Source of the DNA: a virus
Strand: one strand, 5' to 3'
Length of the DNA stretch: 6,624 nucleotides
Virus record (IMG/VR): IMGVR_UViG_3300008807_000535
Span: 1-6,624 of that record
Shown here: positions 1 through 6,624 of the stretch, piece after piece
Layout: each line of letters opens with the position of its first letter
Numbering within the stretch: the stretch's first letter is position 1
Translations under genes and position numbers: made by a program
The notes under the pieces: model-generated
Seen by the model: only the letters and a program-made list of their open reading frames with translations
Told to the model about the DNA's origin: nothing
Database searches by the model: none

Positions 1-99
1 GCCAGCAAGATTGAAAGCAAGAACTTAGGAGGATTTCCCCGTGGCGCCCGAATACATGGCTGTGGAGGCTTGGATTCTGTTGGGCGCGGTATGCGTCGC
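1..99. repeat. Terminal redundancy copy 1, identical to 6526-6624; marks circular closure of a 6,525-bp genome
   Basis: I compared bases 1-99 with 6526-6624 base by base and found them identical. The reading frame of the rep gene continues across the junction. Confidence 0.95.
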
Positions 100-324
100 T
101 GGGTCAATTGGCCTGCGTATGTGCAGGGCAATGCTGCATGCACAGACCGCTTTAGACCTCAAAAGGGCGGCGGCTTTGTCAATGCTGAAACCGGGGAGTT
201 CCTGCCGTCTGAGTTCGCACCAACGGGCGGCGGTTTTCGCTCTTTTATCCGAGTGCGGCGAACCCCGCGCAAGCTCGACCCGTCCGGGCCGTTCTCGTGG
301 CTCCCAGCGTCAAGCGCTCCCTGA
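1..324 (+). CDS. gII: Rolling-circle replication initiator (gII/RstA-like), C-terminal part. It continues from 5980-6525 on the circle, giving 289 aa in total.
   Basis: Frame 1 is open from base 1 to the TGA at 322-324. It is contiguous on the circle with the ORF carrying the HUH (HYH) and YLMKY motifs at 6355-6525. It reads ASKIESKNLGGFPRGARIHGCGGL... and ends ...SWLPASSAP. Confidence 0.85.
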   Translation, partial: ASKIESKNLGGFPRGARIHGCGGLDSVGRGMRRWVNWPAYVQGNAACTDRFRPQKGGGFVNAETGEFLPSEFAPTGGGFRSFIRVRRTPRKLDPSGPFSWLPASSAP

Positions 325-333
325 GCGTTTGCC

Positions 334-348
334 GGTGTGAATCACACC
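334..348 (+). other. Small hairpin (GGTGTG-aat-CACACC) between rep and the coat gene; possible weak attenuator
   Basis: A 6-bp perfect stem with a 3-nt loop lies 10 nt after the rep stop and is followed by ATTTC. There is no strong T-tract, so terminator function is uncertain. Confidence 0.25.
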
Positions 349-377
349 ATTTCATCAACCATTGAAAGGAAAAAACC

Positions 378-578
378 ATGTTCCAAAACGTCAAGACCCG
401 CATTGCTCTGATCCCCGGCGCCGCCCTGGCTGCTGCTGCACCTGCTTTTGCCGCTGTGCCCACTGAGGTGACCACGGCGCTGGGCGACATGAAAGCTGAC
501 GCGATGACCGTCGCCGGTCTGGTGCTTGTTGCCATCATCGCTGTGGCTGCCTTCAAGTTCATGCGCAAGGGCTTCTAA
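378..578 (+). CDS. gVIII: Major coat protein (pVIII-like), 66-aa precursor
   Basis: The layout is classic for an inovirus coat protein. It has a signal peptide ending AFA|A, an acidic mature N-terminus (E, D, D), a hydrophobic core VAGLVLVAIIAVAAF and a basic C-terminus KFMRKGF. An AAGGA Shine-Dalgarno sits about 8 nt upstream of the ATG, and the gene lies just after rep. Confidence 0.8.
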   Translation: MFQNVKTRIALIPGAALAAAAPAFAAVPTEVTTALGDMKADAMTVAGLVLVAIIAVAAFKFMRKGF

Positions 579-580
579 GC

Positions 581-922
581 ATGTTCCAGGTTGGCTCTGC
601 TTGCTACAGCACGGCGGCGGCGGCCAACGCGGCCACGGCGTCGGCGCAATCCGGCGCCGTTGTCACATCAGGCGGCACGGCGCGAGTCGTGACCGTTACG
701 GCGGTGGATGGTGCATCCATCACCTACACCTACCACGCTTTGGACGGCTCCACCGTCGTTCAGACTGTGCAGCACACCCCGCAGCCCTGCGGCCTGCTCA
801 CTGCATCGGACGCTGTTGATATTGGGTGGCTCATTGGGGGCGCTTGGCTCGCTGTGTACGCCATCATGTTTTTGGCGCGTGCCCTCGCGCATGAGGATCA
901 ATCCCCTTATGGCAACACCTGA
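581..922 (+). CDS. Hypothetical membrane-anchored protein, possibly a minor virion protein (113 aa)
   Basis: The ATG lies 2 nt after the coat-gene stop. Third-position GC is high. An Ala/Thr/Ser-rich N-terminal part is followed by a C-terminal TM segment IGWLIGGAWLAVYAIMFLA. It sits in the structural module between the coat gene and the pIII-like gene. Confidence 0.6.
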   Translation: MFQVGSACYSTAAAANAATASAQSGAVVTSGGTARVVTVTAVDGASITYTYHALDGSTVVQTVQHTPQPCGLLTASDAVDIGWLIGGAWLAVYAIMFLARALAHEDQSPYGNT

Positions 923-980
923 ATTTTTCGCGGTGCTGGTCGGCATCCTGGGTTCAATATGGCTCATCGTCTCGCGCTGA
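909..980 (+). CDS. Candidate tiny hydrophobic ORF (23 aa, MATPEFFAVLVGILGSIWLIVSR), comparable in size and character to pVII/pIX
   Basis: The ATG at 909 opens a frame bridging the end of the 113-aa ORF and the start of the pIII-like gene. The product is almost entirely one TM helix. I saw no Shine-Dalgarno, and it is too short to assess statistically. Confidence 0.2.
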   Translation: MATPEFFAVLVGILGSIWLIVSR

Positions 981-2236
981 TTCTCGGGCTGCTCGTTTTC
1001 GCCCAGCAGGCCCATGCGGGCTATGCTTACCCCGTTGACCCGCCTGGATTCCAGCGTGGCGGGCCTTGGGGTTCCGGCTTCGGCTATGCCCCAGCGGCCA
1101 ACGATCAGACATTCGGGCGCGTCGTTCACACGCCCAACGGCCCCACGGCGCCTGTGCCTGGGAAACCTACAACGCTCCCCGCGTCCTACCGCTTCGCTTC
1201 TAACGCACCGAAGTTCGCGTCGCGCATCATCTTCATGCATCCGGGCGTGCGAACCGCTGCGGGCGTGCTCGCATGGCTCGGCATGGCCGGTGTGATTTGG
1301 GATGCTGTCAATGGGGTGTGGCGCCAGGAAAAAAGCCTGACGGAATCCGGCGAGGGTGGCGAATGGACATTTAGCGACGGCACCGTAACAAGCAACCCAC
1401 AGGGCCATTGCGCAATGTGGGGGGCCAGTTTCACATCAAGCGGCAATCAAGGCTGGTGCATGACGGCTGGCGGCATCGTTGCCTCGGCCCACCGAGACGG
1501 CCCCCAGCAATGCCCCGTAGGCTGGACGTCAACGCCCGCCGGTTGCCTTTCGCCAGCTCTCACGCAGCCACAATTCGAGGACGCACTGAACCCGCATCCA
1601 ATGCCGTCAACGGTGCCCCTTGAGCTGCCCAAACCCTCGCCGCTCCCAATTGAGCCCAATCCCTGGATCAATCCAGAACCCGGCCCCAATCCACAAACCC
1701 GGCCCCGGTTCGTGCCAAACGGCGACCCCGTCAAAAACCCCAATTACGACCCGAACGCGGAGCCTTCGCCGGACAATCAGCCCTACAAGCAGCCGGGGAC
1801 GCGCATCGTGCCGTCGCCCACTGAAAAAGACCCGTTCCGGTTGGACATTCAGCCCGTGGACAAGCCTACGCCTACGCCTGACCCGCAGCCGGATCAGGAC
1901 GAGGGTCCGGGGCAAGATCCCAATGTCAAGCCCCAGGAAAACCCCGGCTTGTGCGATCAGTACCCGGACATTGTTGCGTGCGCCAAACTCGGCGAAGCCC
2001 CCGAAGCAAAACCTCTCGAGAACATCGACAAGACCCTCGAAATCAAAAAAGAGCAGGGTTGGGGGCCAGAGAATGGAACATGCCCCGCACCCAAAACTGC
2101 CACGGTGGCGGGTGTCGCCCTGGAAATGTCATTTCAGCCCTTGTGCGACTTCGCCACAGGCATTCGGCCCGTCATTATTGGGCTTGCCTGGATCAGTGCC
2201 GTGATGGGCTTTCTCGGGCTCTCCCGAAAGGATTGA
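959..2236 (+). CDS. gIII: Adsorption/minor coat protein (pIII-like), 425 aa
   Basis: It has a signal peptide MAHRLALILGLLVFAQQAHA|GY and Cys-containing N-terminal domains. A long Pro/Asn/Asp-rich linker covers roughly 1590-1950. The C-terminal membrane anchor is IRPVIIGLAWISAVMGFLGL followed by SRKD. Its position before the pVI-like and Zot genes is as in Ff (gIII) and CTXphi (orfU). Confidence 0.75.
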   Translation: MAHRLALILGLLVFAQQAHAGYAYPVDPPGFQRGGPWGSGFGYAPAANDQTFGRVVHTPNGPTAPVPGKPTTLPASYRFASNAPKFASRIIFMHPGVRTAAGVLAWLGMAGVIWDAVNGVWRQEKSLTESGEGGEWTFSDGTVTSNPQGHCAMWGASFTSSGNQGWCMTAGGIVASAHRDGPQQCPVGWTSTPAGCLSPALTQPQFEDALNPHPMPSTVPLELPKPSPLPIEPNPWINPEPGPNPQTRPRFVPNGDPVKNPNYDPNAEPSPDNQPYKQPGTRIVPSPTEKDPFRLDIQPVDKPTPTPDPQPDQDEGPGQDPNVKPQENPGLCDQYPDIVACAKLGEAPEAKPLENIDKTLEIKKEQGWGPENGTCPAPKTATVAGVALEMSFQPLCDFATGIRPVIIGLAWISAVMGFLGLSRKD

Positions 2237-2237
2237 T

Positions 2238-2528
2238 ATGGACACCATTGCCAATTGGTTGGCTAGCATCTCCTGGCCTATCGTGTCGCGCGTGCTCGCC
2301 GCTGCCGGGGTGGGCACCGTCACCTACAAAGGCGCGGATGTGGCATTGCAGAGTGCGTACCAGGGCGCCAAAACGGCATTCCTGGGCCTTGCCGGGGAAA
2401 TCCTGCAGCTCCTGGCCATGGCGGGCTTTTTCGATGCGATGGCTATCGCATCGGGCGGCATTATGAGCGGCCTTGCCTGGATGGTGATGAAGCGCTTTGC
2501 GCTCCAAACGACCGGGGCGCCTGCATGA
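2238..2528 (+). CDS. gVI: Small hydrophobic minor coat protein (pVI/Ace-like), 96 aa
   Basis: AAAGGA lies 6 nt upstream of the ATG. The protein has multiple hydrophobic segments. Its size and position between the pIII-like gene and zot match the Ace/pVI slot. Its stop overlaps the zot start (ATGA). Confidence 0.7.
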   Translation: MDTIANWLASISWPIVSRVLAAAGVGTVTYKGADVALQSAYQGAKTAFLGLAGEILQLLAMAGFFDAMAIASGGIMSGLAWMVMKRFALQTTGAPA

Positions 2529-3688
2529 TCACGCTCATCACCGGCGCCCCTGGTGCGGGCAAAACTGCGGCGCTCGTGGACATGCTGTCAACCCTTGGCC
2601 GGGATCGGCCCTTGTTCGTCCACGGCATTCCTGAGCTCAAGGTGCCCCATGTCACCCTTGACCAGCCCGAAACATGGCCCGATGCCGTCCCCGATGGGGC
2701 GGTGGTCGTCATTGACGAAGTTCAAACCGTGTGGCGGCCTGCTGGCCCTGGTCAACGTGTGCCGGATCACATTGCAAAGCTCGAAACCCACAGGCACAGG
2801 GGCCTGGACTTCTACATCATCACCCAGGGCCCAAATCTTGTGCATTCCAACGTGCGCGCCCTGGTGGGTCGTCATGTGCACCTGCGCGATGTGGGGTTCC
2901 TCGGGCGCTGGTGGTACGAGTGGCCGGAGACTGCCGACAACTGCCGGACTGGTTGGAAAACTGCCCCAATCAAAAAGCGTTACAAGCTGCCAAAAAATGT
3001 GTTCGGCACCTACAAAAGCGCATCCGTGCATGTCAAGCCTGTACGGTCGTTCCCCGTCGTGCTTTTGGTGCTGCTCTGTGCCGTTCTCGGTGCTCTGTTT
3101 TTGGCCTGGAAAAGCTACGGCACCTTGGCCGAAAAAATGGCCGGGGGTGTGCCTGCTGTTGTCAACAATTCGGCGCCCGTCATGTCTGGCGTAATTTCGC
3201 CGCCAGCCGTGACACCGGCCCAGGCGCCCACTGTTCAAGGCCCAGCAGATGAGCGCGTCGATTTCATGCCCCGCTTGTCCGATCGCCCTTGGACTGCTCC
3301 GGCCTACGATCAACTGCGTGTTGTTGTTCGCCTGCCGTCCATTGCGGGGGGCATCTGCAAAGGGTCGCAATGTCTGTGTTTCACGGATCACGGCGAGCGC
3401 CTCGATATTGGCTCAAAAGCCTGTGCGCAGTGGATCGCGTCGCGTCCTTTTGACCCTTACAGCGTGCCGGTCAAATCGTCGGCTTCCGCTTCCGCCGATC
3501 GCGCCGAAAAGGCCGCGGATCGTACTGAATCTGGCGAACGTCGAAGCGATCAGCGTCCCTCCGAGACCGTAGAAGTTCCCATGCCTTCCGGCGTCTCGAA
3601 CCCACGCGGCGAGCTAATGCCACGAGTGCCAATCCTGCCAAAATCAGAGCGAGCACAAGCCCTGGCCAATTCTGAAAAAATGTCTTGA
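2525..3688 (+). CDS. gI: Zot-family / pI morphogenesis ATPase, 387 aa
   Basis: The N-terminal Walker A is MITLITGAPGAGKT (GAPGAGKT at 2543-2566) and the Walker B-like motif is VVVIDEVQ (2702-2725). A central TM segment FPVVLLVLLCAVLGALFLAW is followed by a Cys-containing periplasmic domain. The last roughly 75 aa (from about 3461) are a charged, Ser/Arg/Glu-rich tail with falling third-position GC. Confidence 0.9.
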   Translation: MITLITGAPGAGKTAALVDMLSTLGRDRPLFVHGIPELKVPHVTLDQPETWPDAVPDGAVVVIDEVQTVWRPAGPGQRVPDHIAKLETHRHRGLDFYIITQGPNLVHSNVRALVGRHVHLRDVGFLGRWWYEWPETADNCRTGWKTAPIKKRYKLPKNVFGTYKSASVHVKPVRSFPVVLLVLLCAVLGALFLAWKSYGTLAEKMAGGVPAVVNNSAPVMSGVISPPAVTPAQAPTVQGPADERVDFMPRLSDRPWTAPAYDQLRVVVRLPSIAGGICKGSQCLCFTDHGERLDIGSKACAQWIASRPFDPYSVPVKSSASASADRAEKAADRTESGERRSDQRPSETVEVPMPSGVSNPRGELMPRVPILPKSERAQALANSEKMS

Positions 3689-3701
3689 TGTTCTCCAGCA
3701 T
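3471..3701 (-). CDS. Candidate small membrane protein (76 aa), fully antisense to the 3' tail of zot
   Basis: The ATG is at 3701, 9 nt after the orf80 stop on the same strand. The N-terminus MLENIKTFFQNWPGLVLALILAGLALVALARRVGSRRRK is one TM helix with a positive-inside flank. The remainder is Arg-rich and could be an antisense artefact. I saw no clear Shine-Dalgarno. Confidence 0.3.
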   Translation of the reverse strand: MLENIKTFFQNWPGLVLALILAGLALVALARRVGSRRRKAWELLRSRRDADRFDVRQIQYDPRPFRRDRRKRKPTI

Positions 3702-3710
3702 TCGCGCAGT

Positions 3711-3953
3711 TTAGCCCCACAGCAACACACAGGCGTTTTTCACGCGCAGCGCCAGGGCGCGGGCGCGTTTTGCGATCGCAGCAGCCCACGCCGGAACCGC
3801 TGGCCGCATCATCGGCTGCACCTTCCCGGCGTTCATTAGCCATGACCACCACGCGGCGCGTGAGTTGGCTTCATCAATCCCTGAAAAATCAAGCTCAAGC
3901 TGCCGGATCAATCCATCTGCGTGCTTCCGGTAATTCGCTGCGATCGCCATCAT
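3711..3953 (-). CDS. Hypothetical protein (80 aa), accessory/regulatory module, function unknown
   Basis: Third-position GC is roughly 70% in this frame against roughly 50% in the opposing + frame ORF. AAGGGG lies just upstream of the double ATG. It is on the same strand as the repressor. I recognised no motif. Confidence 0.55.
   Translation of the reverse strand: MMAIAANYRKHADGLIRQLELDFSGIDEANSRAAWWSWLMNAGKVQPMMRPAVPAWAAAIAKRARALALRVKNACVLLWG
3743..3771 (+). terminator. Candidate intrinsic terminator of the long + strand operon
   Basis: The sequence is CGCGCagcgccagggcgcggGCGCG followed by TTTT. The outer 5-bp GC stem pairs 3743-3747 with 3763-3767, and an inner GC stem is also possible. 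It lies 55 nt downstream of the zot stop, inside orf80 on the opposite strand. Confidence 0.4.
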
Positions 3954-3994
3954 TGACCCCTTAAATGCTGCCCTCTCGCTCGGGTCTCCTCGCT

Positions 3995-4028
3995 CCCCCG
4001 CCAGCAGGGCGGGGGCGGGGGGGGTGGG
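3995..4028 (+). other. GC hairpin (CCCCCGCC-agcag-GGCGGGGG, 3995-4015) overlapping a four-tract G-quadruplex motif (4007-4028)
   Basis: The 8-bp perfect stem was read directly. GGGcGGGGGcGGGGGGGGtGGG has four G-tracts with 1-nt loops, and it is on the strand that carries the structural genes. Confidence 0.6.
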
Positions 4029-4046
4029 TTACCACGCACAGCATGA

Positions 4047-4162
4047 AAAAAGGGGCCTTTGACCCCTTTTCGCGCCTCCGTTCCGCCCCCCCCAAGTGCC
4101 CCTCGCTCGCCATGGGGTCTTGGGGGGGGTGGAAAGCGAAAAGGGGTCAAAGGGCACTTTTT
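4047..4162 (+). repeat. Long imperfect inverted repeat forming a hairpin of about 116 nt; candidate packaging signal and/or minus-strand origin
   Basis: The arm AAAAAGGGGCCTTTGACCCCTTTTCGC (4047-4073) pairs with GCGAAAAGGGGTCAAAGGGCACTTTTT (4136-4162). The arm TTCCGCCCCCCCCAAG..CCCC (4081-4102) pairs with GGGGTCTTGGGGGGGGTGGAA (4114-4135). The apical loop is 11 nt (4103-4113), with roughly 45 paired positions and a few mismatches or bulges. It lies in noncoding DNA. Confidence 0.65.
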
Positions 4163-4372
4163 GGGACTAGCACGCGCCCGTAAATGGCGTGCCACAAAGC
4201 GCAGCGACTGGCGCGACATTTTCAGCGTGCGGGTTCGTGGCGCAGACTCCGCGCTCCCGGTATTGGGGGAGGCCAACAGGCCGGGGGCAGCGCCCCGCGT
4301 TAGGGATCGTTAGTTGCCCCTGGCAATTGAGACGGGCGGGCGGCACGGTGGCTGCACATAGCGAATGATCGG

Positions 4373-4580
4373 CCCCGCAGAACAAGTGCGAATCCCCGCA
4401 GGACAAGTGCCGCGCCCCGAGGCCGACTGCGCGGCCCCGAGGGCCAGCCAAAGCGATGCAAGCGAAGCGCAGCGCGGCGGCTGGGCCGACTGCCGCGCCC
4501 CGAGGCCGACTGCGCGGCCCCGCAGGACAAGTGAGGCGCCCCGCAGGACAAGTGCCGAACCCCGAGCGATAGCGCGGGCG
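4373..4580. repeat. Array of about ten phased 21-bp (20-21 bp) iteron-like direct repeats, each beginning CCCCG
   Basis: Units start at 4373, 4394, 4415, 4435, 4498, 4518, 4539 and 4560, and a 63-bp degenerate centre equals three further units. The A type CCCCGCAG(G/A)ACAAGTG occurs four times. The B type CCCCGAGGCCGACTGCGCGG occurs twice exactly, plus variants. There is a 32-bp perfect direct repeat at 4408-4439 and 4491-4522. Confidence 0.85.
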
Positions 4581-4583
4581 CTG

Positions 4584-4599
4584 GGCTGGCTGGCTGGCT
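4584..4599. repeat. (GGCT)x4 tetranucleotide microrepeat abutting the repressor stop codon
   Basis: GGCTGGCTGGCTGGCT was read directly. Its last base overlaps the complement of the repressor TGA stop (4599-4601). Confidence 0.8.
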
Positions 4600-5048
4600 C
4601 AACCGTAGGCCAGAGCCCGGTTCGTGCGTAGCACGAAAACGCCCAATCGGCTCTTGATCTGGCGCAGCATCCAATAGATACGATGTATAGAAAGGTTAAC
4701 CGGCGTGTCACTTTTCGCTATCGTTTCCATAGTGGAAATCGAGTCGTCTTTGTAGGAAATAACCAACATCGCCGCCACGCCAGCGGCTAGCGCCTTTCCC
4801 AAAATGTTACGCAGGGTCGATTCCCTGCGCGTCCCCCTGGCGCCCTCGATGATCGCCGCAATGGCGGCCTCCCTAGCATCGTCCCCGGCAATGTCTGCCA
4901 GCTCTGCCGCTGTGGCAGGTGATATGGCCCGTTTCCCGCTTCGCATAAGCGATATGTTCGGGCGCGCAATACCCATTCGGTCGGCTAGCTGCTGGTCACC
5001 CCCGCACACTTCCGCCGCCTTGTCAATAAGCATTTGTACGTATTGCAT
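4599..5048 (-). CDS. XRE/Cro-CI-type helix-turn-helix transcriptional repressor (149 aa)
   Basis: The N-terminal segment QQLADRMGIARPNISLMRSGKRAIS is a typical HTH_XRE signature. The gene diverges from the gV operon across palindromic operators. A GGAG Shine-Dalgarno lies 6 nt upstream of the ATG. The C-terminal half contains a hydrophobic stretch ALAAGVAAMLVISY and is encoded by visibly less GC-rich DNA. Confidence 0.8.
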   Translation of the reverse strand: MQYVQMLIDKAAEVCGGDQQLADRMGIARPNISLMRSGKRAISPATAAELADIAGDDAREAAIAAIIEGARGTRRESTLRNILGKALAAGVAAMLVISYKDDSISTMETIAKSDTPVNLSIHRIYWMLRQIKSRLGVFVLRTNRALAYG

Positions 5049-5064
5049 GTATCACTCCTGATAC
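5049..5064. promoter_or_regulatory. Operator O1: palindrome GTATCA-ctcc-TGATAC
   Basis: It has perfect 6-bp inverted arms with a 4-bp spacer and directly abuts the repressor ATG. On the minus strand the spacer reads GGAG, which is the repressor Shine-Dalgarno. Confidence 0.65.
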
Positions 5065-5080
5065 TTGAGACTCTGCACCC

Positions 5081-5096
5081 GTATCACCTTTGATAC
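5081..5096. promoter_or_regulatory. Operator O2: palindrome GTATCA-cctt-TGATAC
   Basis: Its arms are identical to those of O1, 32 bp centre to centre (about three helical turns). It ends 17 nt upstream of the gV ATG. A -35-like TTGAGA (5065-5070) lies between O1 and O2. A -35-like TTGACG for the minus strand is the complement of 5097-5102. The -10 elements are not clear. Confidence 0.65.
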
Positions 5097-5113
5097 GTCA
5101 ATCGGAGTCCACC

Positions 5114-5422
5114 ATGATCAAAGTCTCGGTAACGTCAACCGAAATCCGCAATCAAAGCGGCAACGTGAAGGCCACCGGCAAGCCCTACAGCCTCAACTTC
5201 CAGACGGTATGGTTTCACACCTTCGACCGTTCCGGCAAGCCCAACCCTTACCCTGAGAAAGTCGAGATTATTCTCGAAAAGAACGAACAGGGTGCTCCGC
5301 TGTTCTGGCCTGCCGGTGAATACACCCTGGCGCCGGAATCCATCTACGTCAACCGGAACGGCGATCTGGCGATTTCACCCCGCCTCGTGGCCCTGAAACC
5401 CAAAGCAGCCGCTGCGGCTTGA
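5114..5422 (+). CDS. gV: ssDNA-binding protein (gene V protein-like), 102 aa
   Basis: There is colinear similarity to Ff gVp as I recall it: MIKVSV against MIKVEI, GKPYSLNFQ against GKPYSLNEQ, YPEKVEIILE against YPVLVKITLD, and a C-terminal RLVALKPK against RLRLVPAK. GGAG lies 6 nt upstream of the ATG at 5114. The TTG at 5090 from the ORF track is unlikely to be the start. Confidence 0.88.
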   Translation: MIKVSVTSTEIRNQSGNVKATGKPYSLNFQTVWFHTFDRSGKPNPYPEKVEIILEKNEQGAPLFWPAGEYTLAPESIYVNRNGDLAISPRLVALKPKAAAAA

Positions 5423-5427
5423 TCGCC

Positions 5428-5637
5428 ATGGAATCCGCATTCCACGCGGCCCGGATGGTCGCAGCGCATGACGCGCTGCAATCCATCTTGGCGGAATTCA
5501 ACCAGGACGCGGAACCCGGACACGCTGCCGCATCCGTGTCTGCTCGGTTCAAGCTCGACGCCGCAGACACTCCGGGCGGCCTGGATTTGGTGTTTTTTGA
5601 CGCTTCCGGCGTCATGCTGGCCGGTGAGGGCATATGA
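5428..5637 (+). CDS. Hypothetical small acidic protein (69 aa)
   Basis: Third-position GC is high. The ATG lies 5 nt after the gV stop, and an alternative TTG at 5419 overlaps that stop. Its own stop overlaps the next ATG (ATGA at 5634-5637). Confidence 0.55.
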   Translation: MESAFHAARMVAAHDALQSILAEFNQDAEPGHAAASVSARFKLDAADTPGGLDLVFFDASGVMLAGEGI

Positions 5638-5792
5638 CCCGCGTCATGCCATCCCCCCGCCTCGCAGGCATGTTCAGCCACCCATGCGGCGCATGGGTGA
5701 GCCTGTACCGCTTCAACAGTGGTTATGGCTGGTTCCGGCCCCTCGCCAGTGCTACGCGCACCGGCGTGCTGACGTCTCAAAGGTCGAATTGA
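5634..5792 (+). CDS. Candidate small ORF (52 aa, MTRVMPSPRLAGMFSHPCGAWVSLYRFNSGYGWFRPLASATRTGVLTSQRSN)
   Basis: It falls below the ORF-track length cutoff. It starts in an ATGA overlap with the upstream ORF and ends in a TGATG overlap with the next one. Third-position GC is about 75%. The competing frame-2 reading (part of 5468-5980) cannot be excluded. Confidence 0.35.
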   Translation: MTRVMPSPRLAGMFSHPCGAWVSLYRFNSGYGWFRPLASATRTGVLTSQRSN

Positions 5793-5980
5793 TGCGGGCG
5801 CCTGAATTCCGGGCCGTCTGGCCCAATCAATCCGCGGCCTTCAACGAGCGCCGTTTTTCCTGCCCGGTTCAGTTCCAGGCTTACCTGGACGCTGTCCGGC
5901 GTCATGCCGTCGCCAACCGTTATGCGCTGTCGTTCACCTGGAACGGCCCTGCGCATGTTGAGATTGTGAGGGCCGGGTGA
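5792..5980 (+). CDS. Hypothetical small protein (62 aa, MRAPEFRAVWPNQ...VEIVRAG)
   Basis: This is the distal, protein-like part of track ORF 5468-5980. The ATG at 5792 overlaps the preceding stop, and its own TGA overlaps the rep ATG (TGATG at 5978-5982). An upstream in-frame ATG near 5684 is an alternative start. Confidence 0.5.
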   Translation: MRAPEFRAVWPNQSAAFNERRFSCPVQFQAYLDAVRRHAVANRYALSFTWNGPAHVEIVRAG

Positions 5981-6624
5981 TGGCGTGGGCGGTGGATACC
6001 GGCGTTGCAGGGGCGCGCAGCGCCCCTGGGCTTGTCTCAGTATCAACAACTTGCACGACCGTGCCAACGGTCGTTGCTTGGGCTCAAAACGTTATCCAAA
6101 TTGACCCCGATGTTCAGCGCGTTACCCGCCTTCGTAAGTCCCTCGGCATCGCTGCCAAAGCGTTGCACAACCTTGGGCCTGTGAATCAACGGATTTGGAT
6201 GCAGACCCTCACCTATCGCGGCGATAACGGCGACTGGAAACCCGAGCATATTTCCCGATACCTCGACGCGTTGCGCCGTTGGCACTACAACAAGACCGGC
6301 ACGAAAACACTCCGTTATGCCTGGGTCGCTGAGCTCCAGCAGCGCGGCGTGATTCACTATCACGTTGTGGTCTGGCTCGCTGCTGGCCTCGTCCCCCCCA
6401 AACCTGATACCTGCTGGCGTCGTGTTGATCGTCGCGGCCTCGTGCATTACGAGCCCCCCATGTGGCCCCACGGCATGAGTAATCGCCTGTTGTCCCATGC
6501 CCCCGTCGCGTACCTGATGAAGTACGCCAGCAAGATTGAAAGCAAGAACTTAGGAGGATTTCCCCGTGGCGCCCGAATACATGGCTGTGGAGGCTTGGAT
6601 TCTGTTGGGCGCGGTATGCGTCGC
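5980..6624 (+). CDS. gII: Rolling-circle replication initiator, N-terminal part. It runs off the window end; the true continuation is 1-324, and 6526-6624 duplicates 1-99.
   Basis: The frame is open with no stop to the window end. Motif 1 is MQTLTY (6199-6216). The HUH motif is IHYHVVVWL, with HYH at 6355-6363. The two-tyrosine active site YLMKY (6511-6525) resembles the YxxKY of phiX174 protein A-type HUH initiators. The start is uncertain: the ATG at 5980 is coupled to the upstream stop, and the GTG at 6061 is an alternative. Confidence 0.85.
   Translation, partial: MAWAVDTGVAGARSAPGLVSVSTTCTTVPTVVAWAQNVIQIDPDVQRVTRLRKSLGIAAKALHNLGPVNQRIWMQTLTYRGDNGDWKPEHISRYLDALRRWHYNKTGTKTLRYAWVAELQQRGVIHYHVVVWLAAGLVPPKPDTCWRRVDRRGLVHYEPPMWPHGMSNRLLSHAPVAYLMKYASKIESKNLGGFPRGARIHGCGGLDSVGRGMRR
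6008..6028 (+). other. Perfect 9-bp GC hairpin CAGGGGCGC-gca-GCGCCCCTG
   Basis: Read directly. It lies within the first 50 nt of the annotated rep ORF. Confidence 0.8.
6053..6077 (+). other. Hairpin GCACGACCGT-gcca-ACGGTCGTTGC (8 bp perfect, plus 2 bp after a one-base bulge)
   Basis: Read directly. It is immediately preceded by CAACTTG (6047-6053). It lies 25 nt downstream of the first hairpin. Confidence 0.75.
6526..6624. repeat. Terminal redundancy copy 2, identical to 1-99
   Basis: Exact 99/99 identity with the window start. Confidence 0.95.

Follow-up and report, generated by a model that had tools for sequence, protein, structure and literature searches.

A probable dual-coding overlap between zot and a conserved small membrane-protein gene in an inovirus genome

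Are two small open reading frames (ORFs) on the minus strand at the end of an inovirus zot gene real genes and, where one of them overlaps zot itself, which partner is the older and which is under selection? This question is raised by the viral record IMGVR_UViG_3300008807_000535, of which positions 1 to 6,624 were analysed (the window). On the plus strand, zot or gene I (2525-3688) encodes an assembly ATPase of 387 amino acids (aa), and its last 218 nucleotides (nt), from 3471 to 3688, are open on both strands, being spanned on the minus strand by orf76 (3471-3701, 76 aa, ATG start). A gap of 9 nt separates orf76 from the upstream orf80 (3711-3953, minus strand). An earlier description, made from the letters alone (the sequence-only reading), had placed both ORFs, the gap and an AAGGGG motif in front of orf80, and direct reading and an ORF listing gave the same coordinates. 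That description took the two ORFs to be an orphan pair, and proposed either that orf76 had been overprinted on a dispensable Zot extension or that the Zot ORF is long simply because the antisense gene keeps it open. Following our analyses, orf76 is very probably a genuine conserved gene and the 218-nt segment dual-coding; as an explanation of the locus as a whole we consider a conserved, unannotated membrane-protein gene in a truly dual-coding overlap probable, and put forward a role on the prophage side only tentatively.

A family alignment, hidden Markov model (HMM) matches and codon periodicity place orf76 in an unannotated family of small membrane proteins, so that neither it nor orf80, whose homologues are described below, is an orphan. 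In nearly all Zot relatives whose sequence reaches the end of zot, a minus-strand ORF of 50-92 aa was found in the same place, and these ORFs share an HPW motif, a transmembrane (TM) helix, an arginine cluster and the pattern L-R-S-x2-E-Q-A-x-F-x-P-V-x-T-V-Y-x-P-K-x-[YF]-R-R-x-R. The family profile, run on 51 sources, matched 30 of them, always opposite the 3' end of zot and with Zot identity there down to 37-46%. The orf76 of the window scored 98 bits (E = 9e-29), though its sequence is part of the model; an independent tblastn search with orf76 reached loci L004 and L005 with E = 3e-8. Both the ATG start and the stop of the small ORF are retained in every relative. Where most members have HPW (HPW or YPW before the TM helix), the window has NWPG and its close relatives DRPG or DRPV. 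One sub-lineage (L004, L005, L008 and L010) encodes a small protein without the TM helix, which has an amphipathic N-terminus, MLRWLKKLF, and keeps the C-terminal motif. The orphan look of orf76 is explained by the fact that gene callers missed it in all four close relatives of the window and that a single-sequence database search with it found nothing.

The strongest test of coding is offered by members of the family that do not lie opposite zot. The small gene of L049 directly adjoins zot, the overlap being 0 nt, and in L050-L054 the arrangement ranges from a 4-nt overlap to a 2-nt gap. L048 (5900-6352) has a stand-alone copy with its own Shine-Dalgarno sequence and terminator hairpin, flanked on one side by a type I-F cas3 gene and on the other by the 3' end of a tRNA gene; this copy may be what is left of a prophage integrated at a tRNA attachment site. 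Among the five L050-type sequences (L050-L054) the variable columns at codon positions 1, 2 and 3 number 14, 14 and 36 of 68, and the pattern holds in both halves of the protein (N-terminal 7/8/19, C-terminal 7/6/17), as is usual for a protein under purifying selection. Members with no zot on the opposite strand also keep the HPW and C-terminal motifs. We also compared frames over the DNA of the last 33 codons, taking 15 diverse loci. Pairwise BLOSUM62 local scores averaged 71 in the minus frame, 35 in the zot frame and 30-47 in the remaining four frames, and shuffled peptides gave about 23. At conserved residues the lineages switch between codon families (CTN and TTR for Leu, TCN and AGC for Ser, CGN and AGG for Arg), and synonymous codons are used at conserved Tyr (TAC/TAT), Pro (all four CCN) and Phe (TTT/TTC).

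These observations bear directly on the possibility that orf76 is a spurious shadow ORF, open by chance opposite a GC-rich, low-complexity Zot tail, with a conservation that only mirrors that of zot. The failure of gene callers in the close relatives and the empty single-sequence search would fit such an ORF, and so would the existence of a second long antisense ORF, orf100 (3550-3852, minus strand, third frame), which was examined and rejected: it is clearly unconserved, with 47-48% identity in L041/L042 versus 74% for both orf76 and orf80. Moreover, when the codons of the Zot tail were resampled synonymously, the orf76 frame stayed open in 13% of the trials and, conversely, the zot frame stayed open over orf76 in 30%. 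Openness is thus unremarkable by chance; it was dropped as evidence for a gene, and the significance of the overlap rests on the comparative data. A mere shadow of zot, however, should not show coding periodicity in homologues that do not overlap zot, a minus frame about twice as conserved as the zot frame in distant relatives, codon-family switching at conserved Ser, Leu and Arg, motifs that persist without zot opposite, or a start and stop kept in every relative. We therefore regard the shadow explanation as close to refuted and scarcely credible.

If orf76 is a gene, the second part of the question is how it came to lie opposite zot, and here the geometry of the overlap is informative. The last conserved motif of the periplasmic domain of Zot is RPFDPY (3443-3460, plus strand), and it is followed by a low-complexity tail of 75 residues (3461-3685, plus strand), poorly conserved at long range and variable in length. 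The stop codon of orf76 (3471-3473) lies 10 nt beyond the end of PFDPY at 3460, so that orf76 does end where the domain gives way to the tail, as had been noticed from the sequence. The same anchoring, from -11 to +16 nt, is found in 20 other loci, with the stop 11 nt inside PF[ND]PY in short-tail lineages and 4-16 nt past it in long-tail ones. Across 21 loci the overlap measures 95-263 nt and has a single codon phase, in which position 1 faces position 1 and positions 2 and 3 are swapped; in the family as a whole it runs from 0 to 263 nt. Zot tails extend 27-88 residues past the motif and the small gene stays put: the short tails cover only its conserved C-terminal motif (the last ~33 codons), the tail of the window covers 94% of orf76, and in L031 and L037, which have the longest tails, the small ORF is covered from end to end.

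Zot of the Ralstonia phage RSS1 and of L049 carries a tail of 23-32 residues, rich in alanine and proline (A/P) and free of any overlap, which indicates that this Zot lineage started out with a short low-complexity tail. Since the small gene is found with 0-4 nt of overlap in distant lineages, and the tails vary, the small gene must be older than the overlap. The history favoured by these comparisons is that the Zot tail came to be encoded on, and was later extended over, the opposite strand of the small gene. On this reading the ancestral arrangement was one of convergent genes placed end to end, as some lineages still have them; in the clade of the window a low-complexity periplasmic Zot tail is encoded opposite the small gene, and in the lineage of the window it has lengthened to 75 residues. 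Extension of the Zot ORF over an antisense gene, one of the two scenarios of the sequence-only reading, is thus retained as history.

The other scenario, that orf76 was born de novo by overprinting on an existing and dispensable Zot extension, has some features on its side. Genes born by overprinting tend to be short and basic, with some disorder and a narrow taxonomic range, and the orf76 family is rare, with half of the protein predicted to be unstructured. It is nevertheless contradicted by the comparison of lineages: the small gene exists without overlap beside divergent Zot proteins (46% and 37.5% identity), the copy in L048 stands alone, and the progression from short tails over the last ~33 codons to long tails over the entire gene indicates that the tail grew over a fixed gene. 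We consider an origin of orf76 by overprinting extremely unlikely.

An older small gene with a tail grown over it leaves the question of whether the tail itself is under selection. To this end the close relatives L039-L042 were used, four genomes with 82-85% nucleotide identity to the window. All four keep both minus-strand ORFs with identical starts and stops, and zot ends at one and the same stop in the five close genomes. In the stretch just before the overlap, zot positions 1, 2 and 3 vary at 14/57, 5/57 and 47/57 columns; inside it they vary at 16/72, 19/73 and 23/73 (22%, 26% and 32%). Variation at zot third positions therefore falls from 82% to 32% (p = 6e-9), a fall that is expected because these are the second positions of orf76. 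At zot second positions it rises, from 33/315 elsewhere in the gene to 19/73 in the overlap. These same sites are the third positions of orf76, and their 26% compares with 53% in each of two references, orf80 (42/79) and the non-overlapping homologues (36/68), a deficit with p about 0.001-0.002. Overall variability is 27% in the overlap, 39% in the flanking zot domain and 33% in orf80, and six other sub-lineages, when pooled, show the same flattening (84/102/97 of 363). These results suggest that both frames are constrained in the lineage of the window and that the tail is not simply free-riding there. Tail and antisense ORF are thus kept together with synonymous-site constraint, as one would look for in a dual-coding segment, in a small sample of five close genomes and with the same phase in 21 loci.

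At long range the picture is largely different, and the small protein appears to dominate the conservation. The patches PMPSGVSNPR and LPPGSP of the Zot tail sit opposite the RRRK and HPW motifs of the small protein, and because these motifs are conserved in non-overlapping members as well, the patches are largely shadow conservation. This lends some weight to the view that only orf76 is functional in the overlap and that the 75-residue tail is a neutral by-product of read-through. The tails are barely alignable between lineages over their range of lengths, the zot frame stays open readily in the resamplings, and second positions of zot vary about 2.5 times as often in the tail as elsewhere in the gene. 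The GC content at third codon positions (GC3) of zot drops from 0.63-0.69 before the overlap to 0.51 within it and reaches 0.36 over the last 25 codons, a decay that had already been described from the sequence. However, the low variation at orf76 third positions (19/73 versus 36/68) implies that something besides orf76 constrains those sites, the zot stop is fixed in the five close genomes, and the unoverlapped tails of RSS1 and L049 make a short tail an ancestral feature of Zot. A purely passive tail in the lineage of the window is therefore, in our view, unlikely, and the idea that the Zot ORF is merely held open by the antisense gene does not account for the data there.

Several points weigh against our interpretation of orf76 as a conserved gene in a doubly constrained segment. 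The family is rare, amounting at 50% identity to 54 clusters in a set of 1.84 billion representatives. In the overlapping lineages the non-overlapped N-terminal part varies near-equally at the three codon positions (46/34/46 of 125), which indicates weak constraint on that part of the protein in those lineages, the TM region being fast-evolving. The test with close relatives involves five sequences from about three lineages, in which recombination could distort the counts; either recombination or constraint at the RNA level may be a source of the low variation in the overlap. In the window orf76 has a weak ribosome-binding signal, GGGG, placed 13 nt before its start. As for function, searches of Pfam, PHROGs, NCBIfam and PADLOC with orf76 gave only sub-threshold, TM-like noise, and sequence profile searches of the PDB with orf76 and orf80 returned nothing credible. 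The sequence-only reading had likewise assigned no function to these genes.

The protein predicted from orf76 is simple. Its best 19-residue hydrophobic window, WPGLVLALILAGLALVALA, has a Kyte-Doolittle value of 2.38, and the TM helix is placed at residues 12-30 (3612-3668, minus strand). The N-terminal flank has a net charge of 0 and residues 31-76 hold 19 lysines or arginines versus 6 aspartates or glutamates, so that by the positive-inside rule the predicted topology is N-out, C-in. An AlphaFold2 model built on a 21-sequence alignment is essentially one long helix, covering residues 13-52, with predicted local distance difference test (pLDDT) scores of 89-96 over residues 11-30 and with residues 53-76 devoid of secondary structure. 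Hydrophobicity, charge and model thus agree with the single-pass helix and positive flank proposed earlier. The most conserved part is an arginine-rich C-terminal motif, predicted to be non-helical, at residues 43-69 (3495-3575, minus strand), with the pattern L-[LR]-R-S-x2-[ED]-Q/A-A-x-F-x-[PV]-x3-[VIQ]-Y-x-P-[KR]-x-[YF]-R-R-x-R; in the window it reads LLRSRRDADRFDVRQIQYDPRPFRRDRR, and Y60, P62 and R66 are invariant in the family alignment. Non-overlapping members keep it too. The GC content at positions 1, 2 and 3 of the orf76 frame (0.64/0.47/0.61) is gene-like. Among protein clusters at 90% identity the family profile matched 20 proteins, of which 19 are nameless and one is a "hypothetical protein".

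Upstream of orf76, orf80 is supported as a gene by homologues and by periodicity: it has eight homologues of 55-90% identity, and its variation among the close genomes at codon positions 1, 2 and 3 is 21/16/42 of 79. The ORF stands as described (80 aa from 3953), but its conserved start is the second ATG, at 3950, because three of the four close relatives lack the first; orf80 is accordingly probably a protein of 79 aa (3711-3950, minus strand). AlphaFold2 gave three helices at low confidence (pLDDT 62), and orf80, a member of an unannotated family, is probably a small protein of three helices. No match to it came from Pfam, PHROGs, NCBIfam or PADLOC, and Foldseek found none to this low-confidence model. 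It is related (pairwise E = 5e-7 with a 116-aa protein of L050) to proteins of 116-145 aa beginning with MIAANYRK, which precede the small gene in L001, L007/L032, L009/L033 and L050/L052, and it fits the pattern of that family, M-I-A-A-N-[YF]-R-K at the N-terminus and P-[AS]-W...A-[RK]-[KR]-A-R-x-L-x3-V-[KR]-x-[AS]-C at the C-terminus. By tblastn, orf80 matched syntenic positions in L001, L007, L009, L013, L032 and L033. A homologue 55% identical to orf80 occurs in an unrelated inovirus (L043, 6066-7825, and also L044-L046), whose Zot is 28% identical and whose replication protein is of the Rep_trans type. There it adjoins a serine recombinase gene (Resolvase) and is itself followed by an 81-aa gene; the latter was considered as a relative of orf76 and rejected, being a coiled-coil protein. 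Its presence in an unrelated inovirus suggests that orf80 moves as a module between inovirus lineages. Searches by tblastn of 50,697 phage records with orf76, orf80, a consensus family member and the long orf80 homologue produced no match.

What these genes might do is suggested in the first place by their distribution. The orf76 family is absent from L003, L013, L015, L017-L020, L023, L034 and RSS1; orf80 occurs without the small gene in L013, and the small gene without orf80 in many loci. Each can therefore occur alone, and the two are not an obligate pair, if that was the meaning of the pairing made from the sequence. Several Zot relatives, and RSS1 as well, have neither gene, which marks the two as accessory rather than core morphogenesis genes, and both share their strand with a helix-turn-helix (HTH) repressor. 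Being accessory and on the lysogeny strand, they would point to a role on the prophage side, for example in excluding superinfection or in restraining assembly. In the proposed mechanism orf76 would be a small inner-membrane protein with a short periplasmic N-terminus, one TM helix and an arginine-rich cytoplasmic tail of ~45 residues, and the tail would bind a partner, either in the cytoplasm or on the inner side of the membrane. The sub-lineage that lacks the TM helix and keeps the motif suggests that the C-terminal motif is the business end of the protein. Binding of an inner-membrane or cytoplasmic target by the anchored tail could then exclude superinfection or restrain assembly. By analogy, then, we put forward only tentatively an action of orf76 and orf80 on the lysogeny or host-interaction side.

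Because no convincing terminator lies between the convergent genes, transcription of the plus-strand operon through zot would run antisense through orf76 and probably orf80. The candidate terminator that had been suggested inside orf80 (3743-3771, plus strand) was rejected: its z-score against shuffled sequences is 0.17, it has only four U, and the terminator scan did not call it. Expression of orf76 and orf80 should, under convergent transcription, be anti-correlated with virion production. Convergent transcription would also produce 218 nt of fully complementary RNA. Perhaps, then, orf76 could be a membrane peptide that resembles a type I toxin or kills the host, with the 3' end of the zot mRNA keeping its expression down in a stabilisation or abortive module. 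The small size, single TM helix and basic C-terminus of orf76 are compatible with this. However, most known type I toxins stay below 60 aa, and they have no hydrophilic motif conserved over 30-45 residues; orf76, at 76 aa with a hydrophilic conserved core of 27-33 residues, does not resemble Hok, TisB or Ldr in size or in control by antisense RNA. The TM-less sub-lineage (L004, L005, L010) keeps the tail motif, non-overlapping members have no antisense partner, and PADLOC and NCBIfam gave no match to a toxin family. A toxin is thus very unlikely.

For a role on the prophage side, the nearest parallel is PfsE (PA0721) of the Pseudomonas phage Pf4, an inner-membrane superinfection-exclusion protein of 30 residues that carries a YxWGW motif and binds PilC (PMC8764522). 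Both are small accessory proteins of inoviruses located, for orf76 by prediction, in the inner membrane, and an analogous block of the entry or pilus machinery is plausible. Unlike PfsE, which has no long cytoplasmic tail, orf76 has 76 residues, no YxWGW and an arginine-rich tail of 45 residues, and it is encoded on the opposite strand overlapping zot; the two share no sequence similarity and the likeness is one of functional analogy only.

Signals for the expression of the two genes differ. The Shine-Dalgarno-like AAGGGG (3957-3962, minus strand) lies 6 nt upstream of the conserved orf80 ATG and is identical in the four relatives, and orf80 is probably co-transcribed upstream of orf76. Six nt upstream of the orf76 ATG there is a TAAACT hexamer (3708-3713, minus strand) that contains the orf80 stop codon. 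In 15 of 23 family loci the ATG is preceded, at a distance of 6-7 nt, by a TAnnnT hexamer (TAGACT or TAAACT), regardless of the upstream gene, and other family members have a GGAGG or GGGGG Shine-Dalgarno sequence at that site. The hexamer may be the -10 box of a leaderless mRNA or a site of translational coupling. A leaderless promoter for orf76 was considered and is kept as a side note only: the -10-like TAGACT is common, yet -35 matches are poor in most loci, the best being TTGACT in L022 and TTGTCT in L012.

The rest of the window is that of an inovirus. Positions 1-100 are repeated identically at 6525-6624, from which the window is read as a circularly permuted genome of ~6524 bp. On the plus strand are the genes for the major coat protein (378-578), a g3-like protein with a TspB-like C-terminus (959-2236), g6 (DUF2523, 2238-2528), zot, a gene V-type single-stranded DNA (ssDNA)-binding protein (5090-5422) and a replication protein that crosses the junction of the window ends. 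Zot matched phrog_197 (E = 1.7e-71) and, over residues 1-169, PF05707 (E = 1.2e-18), and it has the layout of a gene I protein, with an N-terminal P-loop nucleoside triphosphatase domain, a TM helix and a periplasmic Cys-containing domain; the translation shows the hydrophobic stretch FPVVLLVLLCAVLGALFLAW and a C-x-C region. A 23-aa hydrophobic ORF, MATPEFFAVLVGILGSIWLIVSR, at 909-980 (plus strand) shares DNA with the end of a 113-aa ORF and with the start of g3, both encoded on the same strand; it occupies the place of the 26-aa ORF6 of RSS1 and may be a g7/g9-like minor coat protein. The HTH repressor (4599-5048, minus strand; phrog_638, with weak HTH_3 and HigA-like matches) has near residues 85-98 a hydrophobic stretch, ALAAGVAAMLVISY, which could be a membrane anchor or a dimer interface. 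No tRNA was found in the window, and a whole-window megablast against deposited phages found no similar DNA.

Between orf80 and the repressor, the intergenic region 3954-4440 is ~95-100% identical among relatives whose genes are 82-85% identical. It holds a 116-nt hairpin with arms at 4047-4073/4136-4162 and 4081-4106/4109-4134, in which L039 shows a compensatory change of A/T to C/G, and this region is probably a packaging signal and/or an origin of ssDNA replication. The sole matches of an Rfam scan were sub-threshold microRNA-precursor models on this hairpin. Further on, at 4362-4591, just downstream of the repressor stop, are interleaved GC-rich direct repeats (76% GC) with CCCCGCAGGACAAGTG and CGCGCCCCGAGGCCGACTG units mostly 20-21 nt apart, which may be iterons, operators or part of a phage attachment site (attP). 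In L032 a partial copy of the 3' end of the repressor gene is present at the far prophage border, which suggests that attP is nearby.

Among characterised phages the nearest Zot is that of the Ralstonia RSS1 group, with 41% identity and a tblastn alignment that ends at residue 315; closer relatives (46-71% identity over the matched stretch) come from prophages and viral contigs of Comamonadaceae and other Burkholderiales, including Acidovorax, Paracidovorax, Simplicispira and Giesbergeria. RSS1 (NC_008575, where ORF9 is Zot/pI) has the same core order of major coat protein, ORF of ~110 aa, g3, g6 and zot, and its Zot is similar up to PPFDPY and then has a tail of ~32 aa rich in alanine, proline and glutamine. 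In contrast to the window, it lacks both the orf76 and the orf80 family, no comparable ORF runs antisense to the end of its zot gene, the Zot tail is free of overlap, and ORF10 and ORF11 follow zot on the plus strand. The slot downstream of zot is also where CTXphi carries ctxAB, accessory genes that are co-directional and do not overlap. The window resembles CTXphi in having variable accessory genes between gene I/zot and the intergenic region, but here these genes are convergent and overlap zot.

Antisense overlaps have been reported for pop/ompA in enterohaemorrhagic Escherichia coli (PMC7103648), for long ORFs of P. aeruginosa (PMC8850804) and for asp of human immunodeficiency virus 1 (HIV-1; PMC8781085). 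As in zot/orf76, these are opposite-strand coding frames that annotation pipelines miss and of which one partner is biased in composition or disordered. The embedded ORF is described there as a young overprinted gene, whereas here the small gene is the older and better conserved partner, and the case of zot/orf76 is known from comparative evidence, through its non-overlapping homologues and the fixed phase in 21 loci. Long antisense overlaps in prokaryotes and phages are disputed and are discarded by annotation pipelines, and the comparative evidence is unusually clean here in that the same small gene is seen with 0, 4, ~100 and up to 263 nt of overlap, with periodicity normal when unoverlapped and lost when overlapped. 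An essential gene that extends a disordered tail over its neighbour would be the reverse of the usual story of overprinting. Since the orf76 ATG lies outside zot, and three zot codons lie between PFDPY and the orf76 stop, each partner can be tested separately.

It is possible, although we hold it to be doubtful, that both polypeptides are functional and selected and that the overlap is itself regulatory, with zot transcription silencing the small gene and expression of the small gene dampening Zot, and that orf76 would found a new class of inovirus membrane effectors acting through the arginine-rich motif, for example in superinfection exclusion or as a brake on assembly. If this were true, the segment would be one of few antisense dual-coding regions in phages supported by comparative genomics, and an uncommon one, since here an essential gene spread over an accessory gene. 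Because gene callers miss the family in the lineage of the window, the gene content of inoviruses is under-counted.

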